A stretch of DNA of 64,000 nt. Origin: an uncultured Candidatus Saccharibacteria bacterium (GTDB lineage: Bacteria; Patescibacteriota; Saccharimonadia; Saccharimonadales; CAYZZS01). The notes beneath the pieces were generated by a model that was not told the origin of the DNA, did no database searches, and was given only the letters and a program-made list of their open reading frames with translations. The position numbers and the translations under genes are program-made. Each line of letters starts with the position of its first letter. The stretch's first letter is position 1. Positions 5,864-33,352 of this stretch are shown one piece after another. The stretch is taken from assembly GCA_964483035.1 (NCBI GenBank), contig CAYZZS010000004.1, positions 10,081 through 74,080 of the forward strand, given 5' to 3'.

Positions 5864-6289
5864 TTATGAGCTTGAGCCTTCTTCGTAAACAGGCTGACCT
5901 GTTACGCGAAGCGTAAAGTTTACTCGGTCTAGTCCATCAGGTGTTGCTTCACCGAAAGTTCGAGCAGATATGTATGCGTCGAATGTCAGTGTTGCGCCGC
6001 TGGTGTAGCCAATAATCCATGTTCGAGTCTCACCAGAACTAAATACGCTGTCGATTATCTCAGCCTGACCGTCATAGACGTTGTTAGCTTCGATTTCTAC
6101 AGAACCGTTATCTTTCGAGCCTTGCACGAACTCTTTGTTTCCGCCGGGGCTGTCGAGTGTGGTTACATCGACTTCCTCGGCTTCGCTGGAAAGATCGCCG
6201 ATTCTGGCAATATTCTTCAGTAGTAGGTCTGCTTCTGAGCCTTCACCCTGCATCGTCAGGGTTGTACCCATTGATCGTACTCCTGCCAT
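5864..6289 (-). CDS. Major tail protein (phi13-like)
   Basis: 141 aa containing VDVTTLDSPGGNKEFVQGSKDNGSVEIEANN, which resembles phi13-family major tail proteins. It lies upstream of the chaperones. Confidence 0.65.
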   Translation of the reverse strand: MAGVRSMGTTLTMQGEGSEADLLLKNIARIGDLSSEAEEVDVTTLDSPGGNKEFVQGSKDNGSVEIEANNVYDGQAEIIDSVFSSGETRTWIIGYTSGATLTFDAYISARTFGEATPDGLDRVNFTLRVTGQPVYEEGSSS

Positions 6290-6300
6290 GATTTTCTCCT

Positions 6301-6633
6301 TTATTTAATGCCGATAAAGCGGCTGTTTATATGACAAATATTCGCGGGGTCTGGTACGTCCATCGAAAACGACAGACGATAACCTATCCCCCGCATTTTT
6401 GCTTCAACCTGAGACAGCAGAGTGTCTGCTGCGGAGCTGGTTTTTGCCCAGACATCGACGGTTATCTCAATGTCTTGTTTGGCTATCTCGTTATCGAGAT
6501 TCAGCTCTGCCGCGTTATCTGACACATAAAAGGTGATTGCTGGCACTTCTACGATGGTTTTTTGCGACCTCTGTAAGACATTAGATGTAATGCCTTTGAG
6601 TGCGTTATAAACCTCTGATTTCGGTAGGTGCAT
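6301..6633 (-). CDS. Tail completion / terminator-like protein
   Basis: 110 aa, positioned between the gp10-like gene and the major tail gene. Confidence 0.45.
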   Translation of the reverse strand: MHLPKSEVYNALKGITSNVLQRSQKTIVEVPAITFYVSDNAAELNLDNEIAKQDIEITVDVWAKTSSAADTLLSQVEAKMRGIGYRLSFSMDVPDPANICHINSRFIGIK

Positions 6634-6999
6634 CTATAAACCTTTATGTGCTTTTACTATCTCGGTGGTGATGAGTTTTTTGGCTTTGTCTTTGTTTTTT
6701 TGCAGAGCAGGCTTCAGGTATGGCTGTGCCTGCATTTTGCTTGTACCTAGTTCGACATACAGGGCATATTCCTTGTTAGTGCCTACTGTCGCTTCTGCGC
6801 CGCTTGGTATGGCCTTGCTGTTGGTGTTTATTGAGTCTCTTAACTCGCCAGTATCAACAGGTACGATATTTTTTGCCGTACCTTCGACAAGCAATCCAGC
6901 CAGATTGACACCTGTTAGGATTGCCTCCCTTGTTAAGGGGTCGAGCTTGTTGAGCTTTGCCTGCAACCGTCCAAGGTTCTTTATTTTTACTGTTGCCAT
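6634..6999 (-). CDS. HK97 gp10-family head-tail joining protein
   Basis: Contains VPVDTGELRDSI...KEYALYVELGTSKMQAQPYLKPAL, which matches my recollection of the gp10-family signature. Confidence 0.7.
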   Translation of the reverse strand: MATVKIKNLGRLQAKLNKLDPLTREAILTGVNLAGLLVEGTAKNIVPVDTGELRDSINTNSKAIPSGAEATVGTNKEYALYVELGTSKMQAQPYLKPALQKNKDKAKKLITTEIVKAHKGL

Positions 7000-7322
7000 T
7001 TTCTGCCCGCTATCTTTTTGTGTGAGTCGAATTGCCTAACCTCGGCTCGGTAGTGGATGCCGTCATAAGCGAACAAGTCGCCTGTCTGCATATCCACGTC
7101 TTTTCCACAGGTTATCAGCACGTCGATTCGTTCGGTCAACCCCATGTCAGACTGCGCCTCTTCGAGGTTTCCAAACCTAACATTTGCCTTAAAGGTGCTA
7201 ATCGGTGTTCCCGACTCGTCTATCCAGCCGTCCGTAGAACTCGCAGTCTTAGCCAGCTTGGTCACCGTCTTGTCGTAGAAGTGATCTGCGATTTTGTCAG
7301 TGAAGTTAGCTGGTAATAACAT
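6987..7322 (-). CDS. Head closure / head-tail adaptor protein
   Basis: 111 aa; position and size are typical for this role. Confidence 0.45.
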   Translation of the reverse strand: MLLPANFTDKIADHFYDKTVTKLAKTASSTDGWIDESGTPISTFKANVRFGNLEEAQSDMGLTERIDVLITCGKDVDMQTGDLFAYDGIHYRAEVRQFDSHKKIAGRKWQQ

Positions 7323-7704
7323 GGATTCTCCGGTAGGGCTGTAGCAGCTTCTCGAAGCCGATAAATAGCTCTTGGTCGTTTACTGATGCTAGGTACTGTT
7401 GAGGCCGCAGATGGTAGCTGATGGTCTGACCGTTATCCGACACAGACGATACGCTGTTGTTATCTGGGGCTTCAGTGTGAGCGTGGACATCAACTACGAT
7501 TTGGGCTATCACCCGCTCTAAGCTACTGGCTATTTTTGTTTCGTTTAGATAGAGCAGGACACGATCTGCGACTGTTTCCACCAGCAAGTCCAGCAAACCC
7601 CCTTCCGCAATATTCGGATTTAGGGTGGTTACATAGTCTGTGATAGTGGCTTTTTGGTCGTCAGTCATGTCTGCTCTCCTTTTAGCTTTCGTTTGATTCA
7701 ACAC
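7306..7704 (-). CDS. Head-tail connector (gp6-like)
   Basis: The likely true start is the ATG at 7668 (MTDDQKATITDY), preceded by AAGGAGAG. It lies directly after the capsid gene. Confidence 0.5.
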   Translation of the reverse strand: MLNQTKAKRRADMTDDQKATITDYVTTLNPNIAEGGLLDLLVETVADRVLLYLNETKIASSLERVIAQIVVDVHAHTEAPDNNSVSSVSDNGQTISYHLRPQQYLASVNDQELFIGFEKLLQPYRRIHVITS

Positions 7705-8524
7705 CTGCTACAAAGATCAGATCGGGTGCAACAGCCTTTGTGCCGTACCAGAATGGCAGGTAAAGAGACATGTCTGCGCTAAGTGGGATTCGCTGTGGTT
7801 CGTACTCATTAAGCACAACTGGTTGTGCGATTGAGCCGTCGGCCATAGCGATGTGACTGGCGCTTTGACGGATGTTGCTGTAAACACGGACACCGTGGTA
7901 GTAGCCAACTTCCTCGTCAGCAGCACCCTTGATGTTGTCAAGGTAGGTGCGGATTTTGCCGAACTCTTCAGTGTTCAAGAACACGCTAATCATTGAGCGC
8001 GGTACACCATCGACCCAGTCGTTCTTAACGTTCTGGACTTTTTGGATGATTTCTTCTAGGCGCCCTTCAGGGTTGCTTGCCACGAATGTGTGCAATGCGC
8101 CCTCAGCAACAGCCTTGTTGAAGAATGCGTAGTCGAGTTCACGAACTACGGTATCGCCGTGGTCTTTAGTACGAGTGCTGATTAGGTTAGCAACAGTGTT
8201 CGCCTGTACGTCAAAGACGGTGATCTCCTCAGAAATTTCACGCTTGTTTTCGTAGGTGTTGACTGTCACCTTACCAGTGTTGGCAACTTTGTTACCTTCG
8301 CCGTTAGAGCGAGATGTACCGTAAGCCTGTGACTTTGATGTTGCGTAGCGCTGCACCTCAACGCTTCCAGCTCGTGGGTCACCACTTAGGCGCTGGTTTT
8401 TGACAAGACCCGAAAGAGCCTTGACTTGGATTGCTTCGATAAGACCACCGTAAGCTTCTTTCAGCTCATCTGGGTTTAGTCCGGCCTTATCGATAAAAAT
8501 GCTATAAGCATCTGTTCGTGCCAT
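7682..8524 (-). CDS. Major capsid protein
   Basis: 280 aa, immediately downstream of the scaffold gene. Position and size fit an HK97-fold capsid protein. Confidence 0.6.
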   Translation of the reverse strand: MARTDAYSIFIDKAGLNPDELKEAYGGLIEAIQVKALSGLVKNQRLSGDPRAGSVEVQRYATSKSQAYGTSRSNGEGNKVANTGKVTVNTYENKREISEEITVFDVQANTVANLISTRTKDHGDTVVRELDYAFFNKAVAEGALHTFVASNPEGRLEEIIQKVQNVKNDWVDGVPRSMISVFLNTEEFGKIRTYLDNIKGAADEEVGYYHGVRVYSNIRQSASHIAMADGSIAQPVVLNEYEPQRIPLSADMSLYLPFWYGTKAVAPDLIFVAGVESNES

Positions 8525-8543
8525 CTTTTTCCTCGTTTACTTG

Positions 8544-9071
8544 TTACAGCACGATTGAACCTTCGTATTTCGGCTCGTTGTTCGTGCCTTTTGATTTATC
8601 TTTTGGCGTTTCGCCCTTGAGTCGTTCGTTAACGCCTGCCTCAACTGCTTTTAGAAAGACCTTTTCAAACTTGTCGATGTTGTCCTTAGTTTTGTCAGGG
8701 TCAACGTCAACTAGAAAGTCCACTACGTCAGTTGAGATACCTTTTTCCTGTAGAGTTTCCCTCGCGTCAGCTCGGTTTTCTCGTAAGGTGATTTCGCGCT
8801 CTTTCGCGGCAGTCTCCTGCTCACGCTTTTTGCGCTCCTCGGCTTCCTTTTCCTCGGCTGACAACTTGGCTTGTCGCTCACGCTCTTCAAGTTCTTTAGC
8901 TAGTCGCTCTTCTAATTTCTTTTCAAGCCTAGCCTCTTTCTCGGCAAGCGTCTTTCTTAGCTGCTTGTCAAAGTCCTCTTGAGTAAAAGTTTTAGCCTTG
9001 GGGTCATCTCCCTTTTTGTCATCCTGCTGACCATCAGGATTAGGGTTGTTTTGCTTGTCTTGTTCAGACAT
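8544..9071 (-). CDS. Scaffolding protein
   Basis: 175 aa, highly charged K/E coiled coil (FTQEDFDKQLRKTLAEKEARLEKKLEERLAKELEERE). Confidence 0.7.
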   Translation of the reverse strand: MSEQDKQNNPNPDGQQDDKKGDDPKAKTFTQEDFDKQLRKTLAEKEARLEKKLEERLAKELEERERQAKLSAEEKEAEERKKREQETAAKEREITLRENRADARETLQEKGISTDVVDFLVDVDPDKTKDNIDKFEKVFLKAVEAGVNERLKGETPKDKSKGTNNEPKYEGSIVL

Positions 9072-9105
9072 CGCTACTCCTCCGTGTTACCGCCGTCGCG
9101 TTAGT

Positions 9106-9195
9106 AAAATAAAAAACGACCCCCGATGAGGGTCGTGAAATAGAAAAAACGCGCCCCAAGGCGGGAATCGCGTTTTATATGCTCACATTATACCA
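9106..9195 (-). promoter_or_regulatory. Cassette copy 2: extended -10 box followed by two tandem intrinsic terminators
   Basis: The minus strand reads TGGTATAAT-GTGAGCATAT-AAAACGCGATTCCCGCCTTGGGGCGCG-TTTTTTCTATTT, then CACGACCCTCATCGGGGGTCG-TTTTTTATTTT. Confidence 0.55.
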
Positions 9196-9201
9196 TATTT
9201 A

Positions 9202-9390
9202 TCAGTAGTCTACGATGCTTCCATCGTCGTCATAATGAGTTGAGTAGTAATCCTCATAGCTTTTAACTACCTCCGGTAGAGCCTTGCCCTTATCGGTAAG
9301 CTTCAATCCCTTGGCAAGATCATCATAGTCACGATAGTACCACTCTTTGTTGGTCATGAAGTACGGTGTGGACATGTCTGTATCCATCAT
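9202..9390 (-). CDS. Small acidic hypothetical protein
   Basis: I trimmed the start to the ATG at 9390, which overlaps the MuF stop as ATGA. The product is 62 aa, beginning MMDTDMSTPYFMTNKEWYY. Confidence 0.5.
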   Translation of the reverse strand: MMDTDMSTPYFMTNKEWYYRDYDDLAKGLKLTDKGKALPEVVKSYEDYYSTHYDDDGSIVDY

Positions 9391-11009
9391 TTCAGTCTTT
9401 CTGCTAGATACTGGCCCATTGCTTTTGCCCATATAGTCCTGCCTCCTAAACGATAGCTCACAAAGGCTTCTGCGAAGAACTCACGCGGATTGCGCATACC
9501 ATAATCGGACATTTCACCCAGTAGCGTGGCTCTCGATTTGCCAGAAATACCTTCTGCAATACCTATTATGTCATTTTGAATACTCCTTGCCAACTTGTCA
9601 CTCATAACATCCTTACCCATTAGATGGTTTTCTATGACATGCCCCATCTCGTGAGTGGCAGTATAGCGAGTATATTTTCGCTTAGGCACTTTCATCTTGA
9701 AGCCATTACTGATTTCATTGGCTAAGGAGCCAATATATGACTGCTTGTCTCTAAGGTGCTGCGTAGACAGCATAATGACAGCATTATTTCGCTGCGTCGC
9801 ACCCTTAGCCTGCATATTGCTTGCCTTCAACTCTATGCCATTCGGCCCTAAGCCTTTGCGTAATGATGGATAATCTTCAAGTATGCTATTTATTTCGGCG
9901 ACACTATCTCTGAATATAGTGCTATCAAGTCTTGCCGTTGTTATTGCATTGTATTTTAGTCCTGAATTAAGCATAACGATTGCACCTGACGTACTGGCCG
10001 CCATACCTGCCGATGAACTTTCTGCCATTCGTTCGCGCCACTGGTCGTAGCTGATATTGCCGATGTAGCGGTTTCTGCCAGTATTAGGGTCGCGCATGAT
10101 TCGCGCATCGGGTTCATACTCTTCGCCTAAGTACGCCCGTGTTGTAGAGCGGCAGTTAGGGTGCTGTGGGGGGTAGTTTTCACTACTGGTAACTGGAAAG
10201 CGGTTGCCATCGAGTGCTTGGCAAATTGAGCTGGTTCTAGTGTCAAGTGTGGCAACATAAACAAACTCTTTTATGCCAATACCTTTGTAGCTCTCAATCG
10301 AGGCGAGCGTATTAAAGTGGTTAGTCTCTGTCCTGACTAATCGGGCAGCCTGAAATCGGGTCACATTATAGCGATCTTTGAGTTGCTTTATTGTGCGACT
10401 ATGGCTTTGCCCTGTGATTACGGCTACAGCTAGATCATTTTTTAACCCACTGGCTAGCAATTCACTGTTTTTCCATATTCTCTTTGAGTAGTTCTGGCCG
10501 TGAAACTTGGTTTTGAGAATACGGTTAACGGCTCTGGTGTTGATCTGTGCGAAAGCTGGCGCAACACCCGTGCCTTTGGATAGGTTATACATGGCATAGT
10601 TGTAGGCCGTGTTGATTGTCTGGCGGTGGGCATTAGTCTGAATTGCAAGGTGTAATTGAGCGGCTTTTTTCGACTCTAGCCACATTTGGGCTTCTAGAAG
10701 TTCTAGGCGGGATAATCTGAAGCCGTAGCCCTCTGGCAGCTCGGCAATCAGTCCGGCAGCTCTTACGGCCTCCTGAAAGCGCAATATATCGCCGCTAGGA
10801 GCTATTTGCCGGAGTTTCTGCACATCCCAGCCGTTTTTCTTGTAGGCGGCTTCATAGAGCTTAAAGACTGCTGCTAAGTTCGCTCGTCTGGCGTCGAGGT
10901 AAATGCGGTCAATGGCTCTGAGGTGCGGCAAGGCTTGCTGTTCAACGTAGGCAAGCTGTTCGGCTGCCCGCTTATCCCAATAGGCGTTAGTTCGTTTTCG
11001 GAAAGCCAT
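9387..11009 (-). CDS. Minor head protein (MuF / SPP1 gp7-like) fused to a C-terminal HExxH metallopeptidase-like domain
   Basis: The MuF-like motif is TLDTRTSSICQALDGNRFPV...PPQHPNCRSTT. The C-terminal part carries TATHEMGHVIENH and PREFFAEAFVSY. Confidence 0.75.
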   Translation of the reverse strand: MAFRKRTNAYWDKRAAEQLAYVEQQALPHLRAIDRIYLDARRANLAAVFKLYEAAYKKNGWDVQKLRQIAPSGDILRFQEAVRAAGLIAELPEGYGFRLSRLELLEAQMWLESKKAAQLHLAIQTNAHRQTINTAYNYAMYNLSKGTGVAPAFAQINTRAVNRILKTKFHGQNYSKRIWKNSELLASGLKNDLAVAVITGQSHSRTIKQLKDRYNVTRFQAARLVRTETNHFNTLASIESYKGIGIKEFVYVATLDTRTSSICQALDGNRFPVTSSENYPPQHPNCRSTTRAYLGEEYEPDARIMRDPNTGRNRYIGNISYDQWRERMAESSSAGMAASTSGAIVMLNSGLKYNAITTARLDSTIFRDSVAEINSILEDYPSLRKGLGPNGIELKASNMQAKGATQRNNAVIMLSTQHLRDKQSYIGSLANEISNGFKMKVPKRKYTRYTATHEMGHVIENHLMGKDVMSDKLARSIQNDIIGIAEGISGKSRATLLGEMSDYGMRNPREFFAEAFVSYRLGGRTIWAKAMGQYLAERLK

Positions 11010-16944: not shown

Positions 16945-17105
16945 ACATCCTCCTCAAATTGTTCATAATGCCACGTTATAAATAAATCGTAGATGTAATC
17001 GTAATGGTCTTGGTAGTCCATCGGGTGTTCCATAAGCTTTTCCATGTTGTCTCTGACGAACTCGGCCACCTCATTGGCGATAAGCTCCGGTTTGACGATG
17101 TTCAT
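16941..17105 (-). CDS. Small acidic hypothetical protein
   Basis: I trimmed the start to the ATG at 17105 (MNIVKPELIANEV), which overlaps the GT2 stop as ATGA. Confidence 0.45.
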   Translation of the reverse strand: MNIVKPELIANEVAEFVRDNMEKLMEHPMDYQDHYDYIYDLFITWHYEQFEEDV

Positions 17106-17689
17106 ACCCGTACCCCCTTTTTGAAGTAATCCCACGTTAGACTGCCCACTCGTTTGTTGTAGTAGTAGGCATAAATATCGGTGAATTTGCATGTCGGGTT
17201 TTTAGCTAGAAGCTCCCGATGGACTTTTTGATCTTCGTGGATGCGTACAGGATCGGGGCGGATGTCGCCTAAAAACTCACGCCTGATAAACTTGCCGTTA
17301 CCAACCCATCTATTGACGTTCTCTTTGTATATTCTGCGCTTTCGTCCATCGCTATACTGGATGTTATAGAAGACCAAATCTTCTCCCTTGAGCTGGTTAA
17401 TGACTCTATTTACGTCTGGTAGGAAGTAATCATCGCTATCAAGCTGCACGATATAGTCTGCTGTGGCTTCATCCATGAGTCGAGCGAGTGAGTAGCCTAT
17501 ACCCATGTTTTCATCGTTAGATATAAGGGTAATGCTGCGATTGTCGGATAACTTCTCGATGACTTTTAGGGTGTTGTCGGTGCTAGCGTCGTCGCAGACT
17601 AGTACGTTGCAGTTTCTAGGTATGGAGTTGATAGCTTGCCTGATCAATTCCTCTTGGTTGTACACCGGTATGATTACGTCAACGGTCAT
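17102..17689 (-). CDS. Family-2 glycosyltransferase
   Basis: Contains VIIPVYNQEELIRQAINSI...VCDDASTDNT...QLDSDD, a GT-A fold with DxD-type motifs. Confidence 0.8.
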   Translation of the reverse strand: MTVDVIIPVYNQEELIRQAINSIPRNCNVLVCDDASTDNTLKVIEKLSDNRSITLISNDENMGIGYSLARLMDEATADYIVQLDSDDYFLPDVNRVINQLKGEDLVFYNIQYSDGRKRRIYKENVNRWVGNGKFIRREFLGDIRPDPVRIHEDQKVHRELLAKNPTCKFTDIYAYYYNKRVGSLTWDYFKKGVRV

Positions 17690-18402
17690 TTTTCAAACTC
17701 CGAGGGTTCGGGGAAGTGAGTGCGTAGGTCTTCTACCCACCGTCTAGTTGATAGTATCTCGCCCTCTAAGAGCTTGCCTGTGGTCGTCTTGCGGTCTTTG
17801 TACTGTTTACCGCCAATTTTGTAGATGTTTCCGTAGAGGCTCCTGCTGGCTAGTGTCACTCCTGCGGACTCTTGGACCCTCATTATCTCCAGGCGTTTCT
17901 GCTTGTTGTAGATGATTGGCGCATGGACTTCGTAGTTTTTGGGGTCTTTTATTCCTTGTTCAATAAGGAAGTCTCTGGTCTTGGATTTCGTCCTGAGCCA
18001 TGTGTTATGACCCTTGAATTCTTTTAACTTGCCGTCATAGAGTGGTTCTATCTCGATAGGTTTGGTAATGAAGAAGTCGTCATTGAAGAATATGAAGTCA
18101 TCTGCGACTCGTTCGTCATCCAGTATTGCCTTGACCTTGTTCCTGGTGTCTATGGGCTTGATGTGTGAACGCTTGAAGCCGTCAATCATTGTGATCCTGT
18201 CACTAAACCAATCCTCTTTGTCGCCGCACACAAACACTTCACCGTTCCAGTTGGTGATGTTCTTGAGGGAGCGCATGGAGTAACGTAGCTCTTTGCCTTT
18301 GTCGCTAGTGCGCTTGTAGATATAACAGACTGGATATTTCATAATGTTTAGTTGACCCGATTCCGTGCTGACTGCATATATTTGATTGTGTTGGTAGTCC
18401 AC
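17686..18402 (-). CDS. Stealth-family-like sugar-1-phosphate transferase
   Basis: KELRYSMRSLKNITNWNGEVFVCGD and FFNDDFF resemble the Stealth CR2/CR3 blocks as I recall them. The track start is GTG; an ATG at 18342 is an alternative. Confidence 0.5.
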   Translation of the reverse strand: MDYQHNQIYAVSTESGQLNIMKYPVCYIYKRTSDKGKELRYSMRSLKNITNWNGEVFVCGDKEDWFSDRITMIDGFKRSHIKPIDTRNKVKAILDDERVADDFIFFNDDFFITKPIEIEPLYDGKLKEFKGHNTWLRTKSKTRDFLIEQGIKDPKNYEVHAPIIYNKQKRLEIMRVQESAGVTLASRSLYGNIYKIGGKQYKDRKTTTGKLLEGEILSTRRWVEDLRTHFPEPSEFEK

Positions 18403-26459: not shown

Positions 26460-27008
26460 TTAGTACCAATGACCCATATCCCGTCCGTTGATTGGCACTC
26501 TCGCTTTCCAGTGGGCTAAGGCTTTGGCTGGCGTGCTGTAGCGTTCGGCTATATAGTCGATTCCCCACTCTATTTGACTCTCCACACTTGATGGATCGGG
26601 GATTTTGCTGCACGGCCACGCTTGGGGGATGCCGCAGGCGGCGCTGTGAGGGTTCTTGGCGTTCGGATTCCATCCGCTTTCTCTATGCCACAGCTCCTCT
26701 AGTGCCTCCCACTGCGTCCCATGCCAGCCCTTTGCCTCGGCTTTCTGTTTAGCGAGGGATTTTGGGTCGGTTGGTACTGGTTCCGGCTTCGGCTCGGTCT
26801 CAGTTTTCACGGCTTCCACTTCGACAATGTTTGGTACTTGAAGTGGAGCTTGTGTTTCCTGTGTCACTTGTTCCGCCAGAGTTATTTCCTCTGCCGTAGG
26901 TTGAACCGAATTGTTAATGTTCGCCGGAGTTTGCCGGATGAGGAGTACGAATATTCCGCATACGGCCAGTAGCTTTATGACCACTGATACCCCCTCTGAG
27001 GACTCCAC
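26460..27008 (-). CDS. Membrane-anchored lytic transglycosylase-like protein
   Basis: GTG start, an N-terminal TM segment, then ESGWNPNAKNPHSAACGIPQA (an SLT-type E-S-G...Q block). Confidence 0.55.
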   Translation of the reverse strand: MESSEGVSVVIKLLAVCGIFVLLIRQTPANINNSVQPTAEEITLAEQVTQETQAPLQVPNIVEVEAVKTETEPKPEPVPTDPKSLAKQKAEAKGWHGTQWEALEELWHRESGWNPNAKNPHSAACGIPQAWPCSKIPDPSSVESQIEWGIDYIAERYSTPAKALAHWKARVPINGRDMGHWY

Positions 27009-27126
27009 ATCCTCATAAATCTCCCGTTTTGCCCTATCCTGTCGCTGCCATTCTCCTTGAGAAGTGGTAGCCGATAGCTAGCTCGGTGGTTTGTCCGATG
27101 GAGCCACAAACGCTAATTCCCGACTC

Positions 27127-27158
27127 CAAAAAGAAAAACCCCGCCGTTAGTGGCGGGG
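27127..27158 (-). terminator. Strong minus-strand intrinsic terminator upstream of the first leftward gene
   Basis: The minus strand reads CCCCGCCACTAACGGCGGGGTTTTTCTTTTT. Confidence 0.6.
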
Positions 27159-27178
27159 TCTATCCCTGTTATGCTATT

Positions 27179-27198
27179 TACATTTTATAAAAAATGTA
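27179..27198. promoter_or_regulatory. Perfect 8-bp inverted repeat (TACATTTT-ATAA-AAAATGTA), operator-like
   Basis: Read directly. It lies between the plus-strand TTGACA promoter and the leftward genes. Confidence 0.45.
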
Positions 27199-27206
27199 CT
27201 TTAGTA

Positions 27207-27235
27207 TTGACACAAGGTCATTTATTTGCTAAAAT
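27207..27235 (+). promoter_or_regulatory. Near-consensus sigma70-type promoter (TTGACA-17 nt-TAAAAT)
   Basis: TTGACA is at 27207-27212 and TAAAAT at 27230-27235. Confidence 0.6.
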
Positions 27236-27239
27236 CGCA

Positions 27240-27588
27240 ACTCGTAAGTCACAGTATGTGTTCTTACGCACCTTATACCCCCAATTCTAACAGTTTCGGT
27301 CCTTTGGATCGGAGCATATGTTAGGTGTTTTAGAGCGTGCCAATATAAGTTGTTACCCTCCACTTATTGTGGCGCATCCGCTCGTGTAGCGTGATAGCGC
27401 TCTAAAACAAATTATTCCCTTTAACCCCGCGTTCCCCCCTCGTTGTAGTTGAGGCTTGGCGGTAACGACGGACATACCTGAGTGGGCCTAAAGCTGACTT
27501 TGCGAGACAGCTTTAGGAGGCCTTCAAGGTGGGTTGAAGGGTGTAAAGAGCCTCCAGCGGTGCCCACCCCCTCTGGAGGCTCTTTTTA
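27240..27588 (+). ncRNA. Candidate ~350-nt structured ncRNA 2 at the phage/host junction
   Basis: No credible ORF. Verified helices: 27243-27248/27263-27268, 27327-27337/27398-27408 (11 bp perfect), 27487-27496/27508-27517 (10 bp perfect), 27521-27527/27534-27540. A terminator closes the unit. Confidence 0.55.
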
Positions 27589-27590
27589 TT
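27547..27590 (+). terminator. Intrinsic terminator of ncRNA 2
   Basis: AGAGCCTCCAG...CTGGAGGCTCT forms an 11-bp stem followed by TTTTT. Confidence 0.75.
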
Positions 27591-27847
27591 AGAATTACAC
27601 TTATTAGATTCATCTGTTAGGTGCTCTATTCCGAGTGGTATGTCGCTTCGGCATCAGCATTCACTGCATACTTGGTGAGATAATAATTCGGGCTTTTTGT
27701 GGAAATCTTCTTTGTAATGACGAATGAGTCCTCATTATCCTCACATGGATAACCCCCCTTGCCCCAAGGCTGGCGCAGGTGTAGGGAGTTATCTGGCTCA
27801 GACGACTATTACGGGCAGCAAATATTGTAAAATATTTAGAAATATGG

Positions 27848-27853
27848 TATAAT
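27848..27853 (+). promoter_or_regulatory. Extended -10 promoter (TGGTATAAT) giving a leaderless or near-leaderless mRNA
   Basis: The TATAAT ends 3 nt before the first ATG (27857) and 6 nt before the second (27860). Confidence 0.45.
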
Positions 27854-27856
27854 GAT

Positions 27857-28450
27857 ATGATGAGTGTTGATCAGTACTTGAGTGATAGGCGACATGAGTC
27901 AGTCACGGATATCAGGGTGTTTCAGGATGTGGATCGTGCTGCAATGCGGCAGTGCTTTGATGGTGGACTTATTAAAATTGACGCTCGACTGAGAGGGCAT
28001 GAGTTGCCCTCTATTAATGAGATTGCTGATGGTGCGATTAATTGGTGGAGCTTAGAAAAGCACTATCCAAGAATTGCAGCAATCGGGGGTGCTGTTATTC
28101 GTTGCGCAGATGGAAAAGCGCGCCCAATTGTGGAATCGGTCAAGTATGAGACTCAGCAGGCGGTCCATGTTGATAGCGCCATATCTCACGGCATAACCCT
28201 TTTGCTGCCGTTGCGCGGTGCTGACGCTACGTTTTACTATGGCGGTAGCAAGTTTGCACATTACGAGGATGCTGATAGCTCAATCGTATACGGCGTAGGG
28301 GATGTTCTGGTATTGCGCCAGGCCATTGAGACAATTGATGGTAGGGTCCCAGAGGTGCCTATGCGTAGGCCTTGGCACGTCGGTGTTGCAGAAGGCACGC
28401 GAGACTTGTTGGCAATAGATTTACATGCAGAGCATTGGCGGTTGCCTTAG
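27857..28450 (+). CDS. Hypothetical protein (possible double-stranded beta-helix / HxD-containing)
   Basis: 197 aa containing AVHVDSAISHG. I recognise no family. Whether it belongs to the phage or the host is unclear. Confidence 0.55.
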   Translation: MMSVDQYLSDRRHESVTDIRVFQDVDRAAMRQCFDGGLIKIDARLRGHELPSINEIADGAINWWSLEKHYPRIAAIGGAVIRCADGKARPIVESVKYETQQAVHVDSAISHGITLLLPLRGADATFYYGGSKFAHYEDADSSIVYGVGDVLVLRQAIETIDGRVPEVPMRRPWHVGVAEGTRDLLAIDLHAEHWRLP

Positions 28451-28462
28451 GGTACTGTCGAG

Positions 28463-29101
28463 TTATAAAAAGCTGCGGGTTTCGGGTGTCAGCCTTCCTC
28501 CGCTGTAGACAAACTCCCCCAGGATGGCGTTTACTTCGCGCAAGAGTTCCGGTATCTGGCCGCGTTCTTCCTGGGTGAATTTTCCGAGTACGAAGTCGGA
28601 TGCGTCGGCTTTTTTGGCGATCTTGTCATGGATGCCGATACGTACGCGAGCAAAATCTTTGCCGACAACCTGGATGATTGATTTAATGCCGTTATTCCCT
28701 GCCGCCTCGCCGCCGACTCTCAGGCGTATCTGGCCGAACGGAATATCAAGTTCGTCATGAACTACCATGAGATTTTCCAGCGGTATCTTATAAAAATGCA
28801 TGATGTTGCGCACCGCTTCCCCGCTGAGGTTCATGTACGTTGTTGGCTTGGCAAGGATAACCCTGGCGTCTCCGATGGGGTGGGTAGTGATGTAAGCTTT
28901 TAGATCTTTCTTTTCTGTCCAGCCTGGGAAATCATATGCTTCGGCGAAGCTGTTTAAACATTCAAAACCGATATTATGTCTAGTGTGGTGATATTCGCGG
29001 CCGATGTTGCCGAGCCCGACGATGAGCAATGTTTTATGCAGGCCAAGGCTGTAGAGCGGTACGTGAGAGCTGGTGTCTGGTTTTTTCTGAAACAATGCCA
29101 T
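28463..29101 (-). CDS. pth: Peptidyl-tRNA hydrolase
   Basis: Contains LIVGLGNIGREYHHTRHNIGF...YMNLSGEAV...VVHDELD...GNNGIKS. Confidence 0.9.
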   Translation of the reverse strand: MALFQKKPDTSSHVPLYSLGLHKTLLIVGLGNIGREYHHTRHNIGFECLNSFAEAYDFPGWTEKKDLKAYITTHPIGDARVILAKPTTYMNLSGEAVRNIMHFYKIPLENLMVVHDELDIPFGQIRLRVGGEAAGNNGIKSIIQVVGKDFARVRIGIHDKIAKKADASDFVLGKFTQEERGQIPELLREVNAILGEFVYSGGRLTPETRSFL

Positions 29102-29133: not shown

Positions 29134-29562
29134 TCAAGAAAACATACCCCGATCAGGATTAAAGTTCTCCCAATCGATATCTTGCCACTGTAGAATCACA
29201 GTTGGCAGGCTTGAGAACTCGGTCTCCAGCAGATCACGATTAGGATCTTCGGGTATTATTAGCCCCTTGGTTTGCATGTCAATTCGGCCTTCACGCCGCA
29301 CGAAGTCGTAATGCAATGCCAGCCACTTCAGGCTTTCGTGGTCCGCAAAATCTTCCGGTGATTCAGCGATAAAAAACTGTACCATAAGCTCGCCAACACC
29401 GGAGGTTTGCAGGGCGGCATGCACGGATACTTCTTCTTTGAACCGATGGTATGCCGCAGGAGTAAGGGTGGTTACGTGCCTGCCGTGGTACAGTGCGTCC
29501 ATCACGGCAAAGCTATGCTCTATAGGCTTCTCGGCTTTATTGCGCGGCACTTCGCCAGTCAT
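29134..29562 (-). CDS. Hypothetical protein
   Basis: 142-aa ORF with a 4-nt overlap with der. Confidence 0.55.
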   Translation of the reverse strand: MTGEVPRNKAEKPIEHSFAVMDALYHGRHVTTLTPAAYHRFKEEVSVHAALQTSGVGELMVQFFIAESPEDFADHESLKWLALHYDFVRREGRIDMQTKGLIIPEDPNRDLLETEFSSLPTVILQWQDIDWENFNPDRGMFS

Positions 29563-30911
29563 TTAGTTCCCGTCGGCTTTTCGCCGTGCTTATGTGTCAC
29601 GCGCTTTTCGATGAACCAGAACTTGATCGGTGTGCCGGTATAATCCCACACTTCGCGGAACTGCTTGTCCATGAATCGCTTGTAGCTCCAGTGCAGAAAC
29701 TTGGTGTGGGCGCCGAAGACCTTGAAGCTGGGGTTCGGATTGCCTTCTTCTTGTACTATGTAATTCAGCTTTGGTTCACGGTTCTTTAGTCCGGCTGGCG
29801 GGTGCATGCTGACGACCCTCCGCAGCCATTTGTTGAGCTCACGAGTCGGTATGCTTTGCTGGCGCCGCTCTGCGATCTCTAGCGTCAGATCAAACAGTTT
29901 AGTGACATTCTGACCAGTTACAGAACTTGTAAAGATTAGGGGTGCCCACGGCACAAAGGTGAAATTATGCTGGATTTGCGGCGCGATAGCATCCCGGGTA
30001 AAGGCATCTTTGTCGATGCTGTCCCACTTGCTGACGACCAGGATCAGTCCCTTGCCCGATTCCTTTATCATGCCGGCTATTTTCTGATCCAGGGCAACGT
30101 TCAGTTCATTGGCATCCATCAGCAGTAGGACGACGTCGGCTTGCTCGATAGCAGAGAGCGAGCGGATGACGCTGAACCGCTCCACACCTTGCCCGATTTT
30201 GCCGCTGCGTCGTATGCCGGCCGTGTCCAGTAGTTCTATCTCGTGCTTTTTGTAATTAATAACCGTCCGGTTGATGTCGCGCGTCGTACCGGCTCGGTCC
30301 GCGACAATTGCCTGCTGCTTTTTGGCCAGGGCGTTAAAGAGTGCCGACTTGCCGACATTCGGACGGCCGAGAATGGCCAGCCGGATCCGGTTTTCATCTT
30401 CGTCGATGCGCGCCGGCGGGATTTCCTGTAGCAGCTGCTCCAGCAGATCCTCAATGCCCCGGTTCTGGGTGGCGCTGGTTGTGATAATGGTCTTAATGCC
30501 CAGCTTTTGGAACTCGGTGATGTCTTTGCCCCTGGCCCGGTCGATTTTATTTACCACCAAAAAGACCGGTTTTTTGGTCTTGAGCGCCATTTTGGCGACA
30601 CGGCGATCTTCTTCGGTAATGATTGTGTTTGCCTCGATTACGACCCAGATTACATCGGCGCTGTCTGCGGCCTGCTGGATCTGCTCCTGGATGGTAAATT
30701 CAAAGTCGTCTTCCGGGTCCTTGATGCCGGCGGTATCAACCAGCCAGAAGTCGCGGTCCTCGTAACTGGCCTTGGCTATGATGCTGTCGCGCGTCGTGCC
30801 CGGTTCATTGGCGACGATGGCTTCGCGGCGCGAAAGGATGGCGTTAAACAAGCTGGACTTGCCAACATTTGCTCTGCCTACGATTGCGACAATCGGTACT
30901 TTTCTTGCCAT
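29559..30911 (-). CDS. der: Ribosome-associated GTPase Der/EngA
   Basis: Two G domains (GRANVGKSSLFN and GRPNVGKSALFN) plus a KH-like C-terminus. I moved the start to MARKVPIVAIVG at 30911, which avoids overlap with the upstream gene. Confidence 0.9.
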   Translation of the reverse strand: MARKVPIVAIVGRANVGKSSLFNAILSRREAIVANEPGTTRDSIIAKASYEDRDFWLVDTAGIKDPEDDFEFTIQEQIQQAADSADVIWVVIEANTIITEEDRRVAKMALKTKKPVFLVVNKIDRARGKDITEFQKLGIKTIITTSATQNRGIEDLLEQLLQEIPPARIDEDENRIRLAILGRPNVGKSALFNALAKKQQAIVADRAGTTRDINRTVINYKKHEIELLDTAGIRRSGKIGQGVERFSVIRSLSAIEQADVVLLLMDANELNVALDQKIAGMIKESGKGLILVVSKWDSIDKDAFTRDAIAPQIQHNFTFVPWAPLIFTSSVTGQNVTKLFDLTLEIAERRQQSIPTRELNKWLRRVVSMHPPAGLKNREPKLNYIVQEEGNPNPSFKVFGAHTKFLHWSYKRFMDKQFREVWDYTGTPIKFWFIEKRVTHKHGEKPTGTK

Positions 30912-30915
30912 GGTG

Positions 30916-31542
30916 TTATTGTACTCCACTAACAGCGTGTTGATCGGCTGCCGCGTATTCGAGCAGGCCGTTTTGCAGCATCCCGGCGCTGATAGCCGGC
31001 AGGGTCTCGGTAATAAAGTCTTCAAACGGACAGAGTTGCTTGCGGTCTAGGCTTAAATGGTCGTAGTACCCTAAGTCCTCTGCGTTAAACGCAAAGAATT
31101 GTTCGCTGCCCTGTTCGATATGAGCCAGACTTTTCGGCGGCTGATAAAAGTACTCCGGGCGCAGACCGTAGGTCCGTTCGATGATGTGGGCAGCCAGCGC
31201 CCTGCGTCGGGTGAGTGAGCGCACGGTATCCAGGCTGATCTCATGCTGAATGGCGCTTTGGAATACCGCCGGGGCATCGTGGGCAGGCATTCTGAACGAT
31301 AGTGCGGCCCGGCCGACAAACGCAGCCATGACATCAATGCCGTTTTCAATATCGCGCTCTCGTTCTTTTGGCATAAAACCGTCTCGCAGCAGAATTCTCT
31401 GGACGATGGGCTCTGAGATAGCAAACGCTGAGGCCGCCACGAACTCGCCCATATCGTGCGGCTTCTGATCGGGCGCCAGCGTAAATGTACTGGCGCGCAA
31501 AGCAATTTGCTCTGCTACCTTCGGCAGCGTGGAGTGAATCAT
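30916..31542 (-). CDS. Hypothetical protein
   Basis: 208-aa ORF in the same operon. Confidence 0.55.
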   Translation of the reverse strand: MIHSTLPKVAEQIALRASTFTLAPDQKPHDMGEFVAASAFAISEPIVQRILLRDGFMPKERERDIENGIDVMAAFVGRAALSFRMPAHDAPAVFQSAIQHEISLDTVRSLTRRRALAAHIIERTYGLRPEYFYQPPKSLAHIEQGSEQFFAFNAEDLGYYDHLSLDRKQLCPFEDFITETLPAISAGMLQNGLLEYAAADQHAVSGVQ

Positions 31543-32251: not shown

Positions 32252-33352
32252 ATGTCCCGGCCGTATGAACATATAGGAAAGCCAAGTCCTGAGGCAGTAT
32301 TCCAGCGCACCCGAGATGCCCTCGGGGTGCCGCAGGAGCGCGAGTTGGAGCGGGGCCTACCCGAGAGTGCCGTATTGTTTGAGCGATTTCCCCACCGCTT
32401 TTTGCCAACAATCGGTGTCGAGATCGAACTGCAGCATTCGCAGCTGGATCACCGTGTCGGTTGGTATATGGAGAATGATGTTGCCTATCATGATTTGCCG
32501 GAGTGGAAACAGCGCGAACTCCAGCCCATTTTCCAGGATATTGACGATAAGTGGCTGCCCCGCCTGGCGGCACTTGAAAAGGCCCGGCTGCGGCTTGGAA
32601 ATGATTCATATAAGGAAGTTATTACGCCGCCGTATTACTACAATGCTACCCTAGCTAGGCTCACGAATTATCTGTTTGATACTGGAGTTCTTCCCGAGGG
32701 CGGTGCTCACCCACTACACATTACCTTAGGCGGCATTGATATTGGTGAGTATGATGACGCACTGCACTCACTGGCACGGATGGTTGAGCTGCTCGAAGGC
32801 AGTACGCATCATCGGGTTGCGACACCTATGCATACTAGTAAGCCTCACTGGACACAGAAATCCGCAACTGGCTATCTGAAGAGAAGTTCTCAGGAGCTTG
32901 CAGGCGGTGTGTCCGGTCTGGAGCTACGGGCTCTGCAAGCTAGTGATGCTCAGCAGCTCGCGAGAGTGTTGTGGCGGGCGCAATGGTTGGGTGCTGAGCT
33001 GAATGCGTGGCTGCAATCTACCGAGGAAGAACGGCAACACCCTTCCCTGATTGACCATCCTGATGAGTATGATCGTCAACTGCTTGTGACGGGCTGGAAT
33101 GGTATGGTGAAGTTTATGACAGAAGTGTATGAGTTAAATGGTGTGGATTTTGATTCGAATTGGGGCGGACCGCTTGAGAATCCGCAAGTGTGGTACGTGC
33201 AAATGGGACTTTGCAGTACTACGATGCAGAATCAGGATTTCAAGTCGAGACTGTGCCTTGCTGTTGACGATGCGCTAGAGAGTGTAGAGATAGGTGTCCT
33301 AACGCATCATCGGTTCGCGTGTATGCGCCAGGGCTATCTGCCTGCTAAATAG
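32252..33352 (+). CDS. Hypothetical protein (possibly amidoligase-like)
   Basis: 366 aa. TIGVEIELQH resembles the amidoligase N-terminal strand. The assignment is weak. Confidence 0.5.
   Translation: MSRPYEHIGKPSPEAVFQRTRDALGVPQERELERGLPESAVLFERFPHRFLPTIGVEIELQHSQLDHRVGWYMENDVAYHDLPEWKQRELQPIFQDIDDKWLPRLAALEKARLRLGNDSYKEVITPPYYYNATLARLTNYLFDTGVLPEGGAHPLHITLGGIDIGEYDDALHSLARMVELLEGSTHHRVATPMHTSKPHWTQKSATGYLKRSSQELAGGVSGLELRALQASDAQQLARVLWRAQWLGAELNAWLQSTEEERQHPSLIDHPDEYDRQLLVTGWNGMVKFMTEVYELNGVDFDSNWGGPLENPQVWYVQMGLCSTTMQNQDFKSRLCLAVDDALESVEIGVLTHHRFACMRQGYLPAK

Follow-up and report, generated by a model that had tools for sequence, protein, structure and literature searches.

At positions 27207-27590 of a 64,000-nt stretch of Candidatus Saccharibacteria DNA (contig CAYZZS010000004.1; this whole stretch is referred to below as the window), a promoter and a terminator enclose a plus-strand unit of about 350 nt with phage genes on its left and cellular genes on its right. 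The question it raises is what this unit is and to which genome it belongs. A preliminary description, which had placed it correctly at this phage/host junction, assigned it to the phage part, at the position where a temperate siphovirus would carry its integrase and repressor module, and suggested a phage immunity RNA, a decoy, or a host non-coding RNA (ncRNA) gene serving as attachment site. The evidence assembled here indicates that the unit is a structured ncRNA of the housekeeping type, transcribed on its own from the chromosome of Saccharibacteria, and not a phage element, a reading that we consider likely when it is taken jointly with the mechanism proposed below. That the RNA is encoded by the host, in a syntenic gene present throughout the class, is held with high confidence, and the RNA appears to found a new RNA family.

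The assignment to the host chromosome comes from the conservation of the locus. Relatives of the Pth protein encoded to the right of the RNA (45-65% identity, species genomes) derive almost all from metagenome-assembled genomes (MAGs) of Candidatus Saccharibacteria/Saccharimonadales, and the host therefore belongs to the Saccharibacteria (TM7) of the Patescibacteria, or Candidate Phyla Radiation (CPR). When window positions 27100-27860 were compared by nhmmer with 70 pth loci, 60 gave matches, all of them on the strand convergent with pth and spanning window positions ~27170-27594, promoter and terminator included. Among the ten loci without a match, four were not labelled Saccharibacteria (Chloroflexota-type and Geobacteraceae MAGs), four ended within pth, and two had just 0.6-1.7 kb of sequence past it. 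The gene order was fixed as leftward dprA, rightward RNA and leftward pth, with dprA divergent on the 5' side and followed by topA, as exemplified by locus L010 (pth 6001-6642, RNA 6638-7083 on the minus strand, dprA 7133-7993, topA 8105-10396). When metagenomes were scanned for the 17-nt terminator loop, 120 loci were obtained, comprising 64 full-length copies, 21 cut by contig ends and 35 without a homolog, most of the latter being stemless chance matches in high-GC coding DNA; about 70% of the exact loop matches in metagenome contigs corresponded to this RNA. Nearly all full metagenome copies with enough flanking sequence had dprA within 8-200 nt of their 5' end and a convergent pth beyond their 3' end. 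The gene downstream was usually this convergent pth, at a distance of 2-130 nt, and otherwise a variable accessory gene.

Altogether, the RNA is present in about 120 Saccharibacteria loci that have the same dprA/pth neighbours and no adjoining phage DNA. No DNA match was found in E. coli genomes, nor any match to the RNA in the INPHARED phage collection (50,697 records), and among ~2.9 million viral contigs the full RNA occurred in just one (L145), at the contig end, as host flank. Being conserved between dprA and pth and absent from the phage collection, the RNA is therefore a host chromosomal gene. The unit is consequently located to the host side of the junction, outside the phage part, and what had been taken for the site of an integrase and repressor module is the usual position of a host gene next to pth.

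The unit has the organisation of an independent transcription unit. Its sigma-70-type promoter (27207-27235, plus strand), with a -35 element TTGACA at 27207-27212, a 17-nt spacer and a -10 element TAAAAT at 27230-27235, scored 11 of 12 in the promoter scan and includes an extended -10 motif, TGc, at 27227-27229. Four promoter-like sites were found across the region against 3.5 expected, so that a single site is not significant in itself; significance derives from the conservation of the promoter in 115 homologs, out of 120 distinct ones for which the extracted stretch was inspected. The -35 element of these 115 was TTGACA (n = 101) or TTGACT (n = 14), the spacer measured 17 nt in 107 and the extended -10 motif TGn was present in 114, ahead of a -10 element of the form TAnnnT. 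The ncRNA itself is assigned to 27237-27589 (plus strand, ~350 nt; 27207-27589 with the promoter), its 5' end being placed by the conserved GCAA 2-5 nt past the -10 element and its 3' end by the U-tract. The lengths deduced in the same way for the homologs ranged from 295 to 658 nt (median 387), and a T-rich tail followed the terminal hairpin in 91 of 115. No open reading frame (ORF) longer than 48 aa overlaps the unit, and the plus-strand ORFs of the homologs are short (median 43 aa) and are not kept across homologs of variable length. G-U pairs are abundant in the helices described below and become A-C mismatches on the opposite strand, and therefore the plus strand is the transcribed one. 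From these sequence features, we infer that the RNA is expressed and probably functions as RNA.

The plus strand folds at -142.3 kcal/mol, compared with -101.6 ± 5.2 kcal/mol for 100 dinucleotide shuffles, none of which folded as well (z = -7.8); the fold of the minus strand is less extreme (z = -5.9). The RNA consists of two domains, a 5' domain formed by P1, P2 and a three-way junction closed by P3, and a 3' domain closed by P6, followed by the terminator hairpin, and all its major helices are maintained by compensatory changes. The P1 hairpin (27243-27268, CGUAAG.../...CUUACG) shows such changes in eight of ten pairs and is separated from P2 by a conserved, C-rich single-stranded junction, CACCUUAUACCCCCAAU (27269-27285). 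P2 (27286-27325) has a conserved base, UCUAAC/GUUAGG, and a variable distal hairpin that is sometimes absent; all 17 pairs changed on both sides, and 93% of the alignment cells were paired. P3 (27326-27409) joins UGUUUUAGAGC (27326-27336) to GCUCUAAAACA (27399-27409) and closes the three-way junction with P3a/P4 and P5. RNAalifold, applied to 57 5' domains in a plain MAFFT alignment, recovered P3, and 11 of its 13 pairs were compensatory, with concerted switches from GUUUUAGAG/CUCUAAAAC to GCUUAAGAC/GUCUUAAGC and to GUCCAAG/CUUGGAC, as well as GCUUAAG/CUUAAGC; in the covariance-model alignment, P3 was 97.4% paired. The P4 hairpin (27345-27367, AUAAGU/ACUUAU) carries the 11-nt loop UGUUACCCUCC at 27351-27361 on a stem that covaries, for instance from AAG/CTT to TCG/CGA, and all seven pairs of the variable P5 hairpin (27376-27395) are compensatory. 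A covariance model of the 5' domain was built from the window sequence and used to align 50 homologs: 91.5% of the cells were paired, 52 of 57 pairs had changed on both sides, and the covariation score was 0.401, against 0.03-0.05 when the partners were slid by 1-3 columns.

The 3' domain of the window RNA (27417-27541) is closed by P6, in which CCCUUUAAC(C) at 27417-27426 pairs with (G)GUUGAAGGG at 27532-27541. P6 was 99.8% paired, and its terminal C-G pair was replaced by G-C in five sequences and by A-U in two. Inside it lie a long, irregular hairpin (27427-27471) and P8/P9 (27475-27531). The interior of this domain occurs in at least two architectures, type 1 (n = 19, the window included) and type 2 (n = 66), with a further 25 sequences fitting neither. 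With a model derived from the window and about 22 homologs, the type-1 domain was 93.5% paired and 40 of its 59 pairs were compensatory, while type-2 domains have a conserved core of their own, CAAAGCGAGUC...AAGAU...GGCAC...GAUGCUUCGCU. The terminator hairpin (27546-27589) has a 12-bp stem (27546-27557/27573-27584) and ends in TTTTT (27585-27589); its stem was 94.6% paired, with nine of nine pairs compensatory, in a gap-free alignment of 107 hairpins. The structural part of the preliminary description is thereby upheld, from the consensus promoter, the strong terminator and the lack of a credible ORF to the highly structured RNA itself, for which the covariation analysis that it had called for supports the helices. 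Both perfect helices that it listed are also present: the 11-bp helix corresponds to GTTTTAGAGCG (27327-27337) and its complement CGCTCTAAAAC (27398-27408), and the 10-bp helix, within P8/P9, to CCTAAAGCTG (27487-27496) and its complement CAGCTTTAGG (27508-27517).

Three observations concern variants of the RNA. In some homologs (L019, L020, L024, L026, L028, L033, L038, L040, L044, L049, L050, L053, L057 and L064), P5 is replaced by an insertion of ~100 nt with conserved blocks of its own (AGUAUA...GCAAUUGCUUAAGCUA). Positions 7035-7702 of L011 hold a 668-nt version of the RNA. Type-2 3' domains often have a loop, UUUAAGGAGUUUUGG, that contains a Shine-Dalgarno-like GGAG.

The covarying helices are interspersed with blocks that are nearly constant throughout the class, namely ACCUUAUACCCC, UGUUACCCUCC, CUAAcCCCUUUAAC, GGUGGGUUGAAGGGUGU and GCGGUGCCCACCCCCUC. 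The first is the block at the P1/P2 junction, within which ACCTT was invariant in the 57-sequence alignment and recurred as an ACCTT-type motif in 115 of 119 homologs. The P4 loop has the core ACCCTCC, invariant in the same 57 sequences, and TACCCTCC was found in 117 of 119 homologs. The terminator loop, GCGGUGCCCACCCCCUC (27557-27573, 17 nt), was present in all 119, its second base alone varying. In the RNA as a whole, four single-stranded C-rich elements show almost no variation; among the blocks just listed, three single-stranded ones, UGUUACCCUCC, ACCUUAUACCCC and GCGGUGCCCACCCCCUC, are C-rich, and CCUCC, the core of the anti-Shine-Dalgarno sequence, occurs in the P4 loop. The CCACC segment of the terminator loop is complementary to a GGUGG directly before the 3' strand of P6, and a pseudoknot between the two is possible on this complementarity. 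The loop motif occurs once in the window against 0.04 occurrences expected; a 14/17 match, GCGGTGCTCACCCACTA, at 32700-32716 (plus strand) in the host part is probably due to chance. A likeness of the loop to the segment GCGGUGGUCCCACC... of E. coli 5S ribosomal RNA was judged superficial: other 5S motifs, such as CCGAAC of loop C and GAGAGUAGG of loop E, were lacking by eye from alignments.

The terminator hairpin also has an existence apart from the RNA. In host loci, the loop motif occurs once per 12 kb, solely in this RNA. Scanning for the loop brought up 86 stretches in viral contigs, some half of them with the full GCGG...CUC loop on a perfect stem of 5-17 bp with unrelated stem sequence; in all, about 45 viral contigs have the hairpin, its stem being free and covarying. 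Among 44 distinct stemmed viral copies, 35 were intergenic, the upstream ORF was co-oriented in 22 of 29, and 11 had a T-rich tail; the hairpin was found in about ten phage-like metagenome contigs as well, including L360, L412, L410 and L443. Examples from the viral loci (L073-L157) are L081 1921-1961, L157 11479-11519 and L098 5293-5333, all on the minus strand. These copies stand directly after stop codons or in 3' untranslated regions, and in eight related contigs the hairpin lies between structural and scaffold-like genes and is followed by a second hairpin, CCAGCUUUGCUGG. Short units made of a promoter plus the hairpin were seen in L081, L157, L102, L134 and L148. In two further contigs, L105 (about 9440-9560, minus strand) and L106 (7395-7585, minus strand), the hairpin caps the acceptor stem of a circularly permuted tRNA-Val-like cloverleaf, arranged as 3' half of the anticodon stem, T-arm, 3' strand of the acceptor, motif hairpin, 5' strand of the acceptor, D-arm, and anticodon stem and loop. 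This tRNA-like RNA is enclosed by a closing stem, folds with z = -3.9 and was not called by ARAGORN or Rfam; its architecture recalls that of the bacterial Y RNAs (YrlA). A G-rich partner of the loop in cis was sought in the phage copies and nothing consistent was found. The 3' hairpin thus acts like a portable module of RNA whose loop is sequence-specific.

How such an RNA might work can be proposed from this arrangement. The helices would form a rigid scaffold on which a G-rich RNA or a C-binding protein meets the invariant C-rich loops, namely UGUUACCCUCC with its anti-Shine-Dalgarno core, ACCUUAUACCCC and, at the 3' end, GCGGUGCCCACCCCCUC, so that the RNA would act as the scaffold of a ribonucleoprotein (RNP) or as a titrating sponge. 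It would be neither a catalytic RNA of known type nor a cis-regulator. The 3' hairpin would be a separable recognition or stability module whose loop may dock on GGUGG as a pseudoknot, and phages of these bacteria would equip transcripts of their own with this hairpin, presumably so as to engage one and the same host factor. In the window, the prophage has inserted between the RNA promoter and dprA, leaving the RNA gene intact. An RNP scaffold or titrating RNA that binds G-rich, Shine-Dalgarno-like RNA or a C-binding protein is our best guess at the function, and a doubtful one. A wider proposal, according to which the RNA represents a new class universal in Saccharibacteria, its 17-nt loop docks a cellular factor, and phages copy the hairpin into mRNA 3' ends, small RNAs and a Y-RNA-like tRNA mimic to use or evade that factor, is put forward tentatively, as a possibility deserving attention.

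Several points weigh against this reading as a whole. Transcription and the RNA ends were deduced from sequence. The identity with rnpB, ssrA, ffs or ssrS was excluded by models and motifs alone. The covariance-model alignments of the 5' domain and of the type-1 3' domain are structure-fitted, hence biased towards the model, and the latter includes a few spurious rows. Since the loops and GGUGG are invariant, covariation says nothing on the pseudoknot or on the partners. The viral hairpins were gathered by exact loop match, which makes their loop invariant by construction, and what is informative there is the stems, the orientation and the contexts. As for the alignments, the slid controls show that the covariation signal is far above the alignment-fitting bias.

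Of the other explanations, the one that survives best concerns the prophage on the left of the RNA. All genes on this side are on the minus strand and phage-like, and they belong to a siphovirus-like prophage with a tape-measure protein, a Mu-F-like protein, an SPP1-type portal, a large terminase, an HNH endonuclease, an SSB, an exonuclease and a transglycosylase (26460-27008). Relatives have the start codon of dprA, which reads CAT on the RNA strand, 15-19 nt upstream of AGTATTGACA; a CAT 19 nt from AGTATTGACA is present in the window as well (27181-27183) and is followed on the minus strand by TAA and a terminator. The prophage-side end (27136-27183, minus strand) thus comprises ATG-TAA at 27183-27178 and, after it, the strong terminator at 27161-27136. 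No similarity to dprA or topA was found anywhere in the window. The start of dprA is therefore, in essence, also the point from which the phage DNA extends. The prophage displaces dprA directly upstream of the RNA promoter, and the RNA promoter and gene are intact. Judging from its position, the prophage-end terminator would keep leftward transcripts started at the dprA promoter of the host out of the prophage. Beyond the start of the window, the phage continues for at least 7.3 kb and reaches tail genes, as seen in Logan contigs identical to the window, and the prophage is therefore at least 34 kb long. Logan contigs also end at 27153 on the phage side, in the terminator palindrome, and start at 27183 on the host side; they come from different samples, and these are probably assembly breaks. 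The prophage also encodes a family-2 glycosyltransferase and a Stealth CR2-like protein (17102-18402, minus strand), possible surface-modification morons.

A second, unrelated prophage adjoins the RNA in the single viral contig mentioned above, L145 (IMGVR_UViG_3300049064_000004), where a full RNA homolog (7932-8381, plus strand) lies at the contig end in the same orientation as in the window, with RecT-like and exonuclease/FtsK-like phage genes on its 5' side. This phage has a motif hairpin of its own about 1 kb inside the phage (6851-6891, minus strand), on the phage gene strand. The two phages have in common the RNA homolog, the 5' flank CTGTTAT...CTATTTACA(C)AT and a terminator at the matching position, and elsewhere gave few short, weak tblastx matches. 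The spacer between dprA and the RNA promoter may therefore be a recurrent integration site, and it could be argued that a family of Saccharibacteria prophages uses the divergent dprA/RNA promoter region as its attachment (att) site, with the RNA mainly an integration landmark. In favour of this are the two phages with almost no detectable similarity that both abut the RNA 5' flank, each with a terminator followed by the common CTGTTAT...CTATTTACA(C)AT arm, and the displacement of dprA in the window. Against it, the far prophage end is outside the window, so that neither a direct repeat nor an att core could be delimited; no integrase was seen near either junction or in the visible part of the window prophage; and no prophage-free close relative was found for attB, the nearest approach, L453, being just ~70% identical. 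We regard this alternative as somewhat unlikely; it is compatible with a host ncRNA and does not exclude one. The suggestion that a host ncRNA gene serves as attachment site thus holds for the host origin, while its second part is suggestive, with two prophages abutting the 5' flank and no att duplication seen.

Related candidates were rejected as well. L453, which has a homolog of the 197-aa ORF of the window and an adjacent dprA, was dismissed as the empty site because of its ~70% identity. A role of the 3' hairpin as attB for integrases was dismissed as the main explanation because no duplicated loop copies were found within the 12-kb host loci, no integrase lay in the RNA-pth spacers, and phage copies stand between structural genes and after stop codons. 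A degenerate promoter pattern run against the viral contigs was unspecific and gave promoter-level similarity alone among the matches listed.

To return to the host ncRNA, it could still belong to a known family in disguise, as a highly diverged RNase P RNA, transfer-messenger RNA (tmRNA), signal recognition particle (SRP) RNA or 6S RNA missed by standard models. The median length of 387 nt would suit RNase P RNA or tmRNA, the RNA is universal in the lineage and has a strong promoter, prophages adjoin it as is typical for ssrA, and RNAs of CPR bacteria are often atypical, their tRNA genes for instance being missed because of introns. The model searches nevertheless speak against it. With Rfam 15, the window gave two tRNAs and nothing for the RNA, which was equally without a match in 26 related loci of host or viral origin; a search relaxed to E ≤ 10 returned noise alone for the two different homologs searched, the window RNA and the type-2 homolog L009. 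The RNase P models (RF00010, RF00011 and related ones) had no match at the gathering score in the window and the 26 related loci, and none at E ≤ 10 in the window RNA or L009. Among the 119 homologs, the RNase P P4 strands were represented by CR-I GGAAAGUCC (≤1 mismatch) in three and by CR-V ACAGAA...GGCUUA in none. No tmRNA was called by ARAGORN or matched in Rfam; the T-loop motif was seen in one and TCCACCA in three of 119 homologs, and the RNA closes at its 3' end with a terminator hairpin instead of an acceptor/CCA end. For SRP RNA, judged by a domain IV with a GNAR tetraloop and GGAAGCAGC-type internal loops, no Rfam match was obtained, and the domain IV word GAAGCAGC (one mismatch allowed) occurred in 12 of 119 homologs at no conserved position. 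There was no Rfam match to 6S RNA, and the multi-branched, two-domain fold with a median of 387 nt is unlike its ~180-nt rod with a central bubble. Moreover, a catalytic core would not tolerate the variation of the 3' domain between two or more architectures. A disguised member of these families is thus very unlikely.

Models of other large RNAs (OLE, GOLLD, ROOL, raiA and HEARO) matched neither at the gathering score nor at E ≤ 10, and the Rfam c4 model had no match. The preliminary description had recognised no known family either, which Rfam 15, ARAGORN and the hallmark motifs bear out. It had held that its proposal would fall if the locus were found in prophage-free relatives and also matched a known housekeeping RNA: the locus does occur in such relatives, and no housekeeping family matches it. 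Neither the RNA nor its motifs were found described in the full text of open-access papers and bioRxiv preprints, and according to a 2022 transcriptome preprint, TM7x has no validated small RNAs. An identity as CRISPR repeat or tracrRNA-like RNA was also rejected. It had come up since GTTTTAGAGCG looks like the start of a CRISPR repeat; this sequence occurs solely as the two P3 strands, with no array, and no cas domains were present among the scanned neighbours.

A cis-regulatory leader, a riboswitch or the mRNA of a small protein is still less probable. Riboswitches often account for large conserved structures upstream of genes, and in the window a 197-aa ORF (27857-28450) does follow the RNA, ahead of pth (28463-29101), a 142-aa ORF, der (29559-31025) and a pseudouridine synthase gene, all cellular. 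The RNA, however, ends at a terminator of its own, which has a T-rich tail in 91 of 115 homologs, and is then usually followed by the convergent pth or else by variable genes, an arrangement on which a riboswitch or cis-leader identity was rejected. The 197-aa ORF has a promoter of its own (TTGTAA-17-TATAAT; 27825-28450 with the ORF, plus strand), and the short plus-strand ORFs (median 43 aa) are not preserved. This ORF had no match in Pfam, PHROG, PADLOC or NCBIfam, and a distant homolog lies at the same place in L453, next to dprA. The RNA-pth spacer varies from 2 to 3140 nt and holds unrelated accessory genes in different genomes, the 197-aa ORF being one of them; by eye from translations, they appear to include methyltransferase-, acyltransferase- and kinase-type proteins and lipoproteins.

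The weakest alternative, a phage-encoded immunity RNA of the P4 CI or P1 c4 kind or a phage decoy of a host RNA-guided system, as first suggested, can point to the adjoining phage DNA, to the 3' hairpin motif in phage contigs and to a resemblance of GTTTTAGAGC to the start of type II CRISPR repeats, but deserves hardly any credence, given that in about 120 loci free of phage genes on both flanks the whole RNA with its promoter stands between dprA and pth, that none of the 50,697 phage records matches it and one of ~2.9 million viral contigs has it in full, as host flank, and that GTTTTAGAGCG occurs solely as the two P3 strands and forms no array.

If the host ncRNA and its proposed use by phages are as outlined, they would amount to molecular mimicry at the RNA level between a phage and an ultrasmall epibiont. 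Saccharibacteria genomes measure ~1 Mb and have very little non-coding DNA, and an RNA of ~390 nt kept at one locus throughout the class, its loops entirely unchanged, must serve something central. Some Saccharibacteria are now cultivable and genetically tractable, and the hairpin common to host and phage would offer a handle on phage-host interactions in the CPR. The 17-nt loop would be a simple sequence marker in metagenomes for Saccharibacteria and probably for their phages.

In comparison with known systems, the P4 CI and P1 c4 RNAs are likewise structured, non-coding and near prophage DNA, but they are phage-encoded, processed from phage transcripts and pair with phage mRNAs, whereas the present RNA is host-encoded and conserved without phage. 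The repeated display of short, conserved single-stranded motifs on hairpin loops recalls protein-titrating or scaffold RNAs such as CsrB/RsmZ and 6S RNA, and the C-rich motifs, complementary to Shine-Dalgarno-like G-rich sequences, recall RsaE/RoxS, regulatory small RNAs of Gram-positive bacteria; the present RNA is much larger, with a conserved architecture and motifs of 11-17 nt that differ from one another, and the resemblance is one of design, with no membership claimed. The 3' hairpin is comparable to the terminators of enterobacterial small RNAs bound by Hfq or by ProQ/FinO proteins, as one hairpin plus U-tail module found on unrelated transcripts, here the host RNA and phage units. In those modules, however, shape and U-tail count and not the loop sequence, whereas here the 17-nt loop is invariant, the stem is free, and the U-tail is lacking in 33 of the 44 phage copies. 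A further likeness is to the large, ornate RNAs OLE, GOLLD, ROOL and raiA, which are also stand-alone, lineage-restricted genes for RNAs of several hundred nucleotides with multiple domains, covarying helices and conserved junctions and loops. The present RNA differs from them in having no Rfam 15 match, in its occurrence in another phylum (Patescibacteria/Saccharibacteria), in its single-copy, fixed locus, and in that the 3' hairpin alone is found in phages. GOLLD and ROOL are themselves linked to phages, a trait shared with the present RNA, which would join these on the short list of large bacterial RNAs with open functions.

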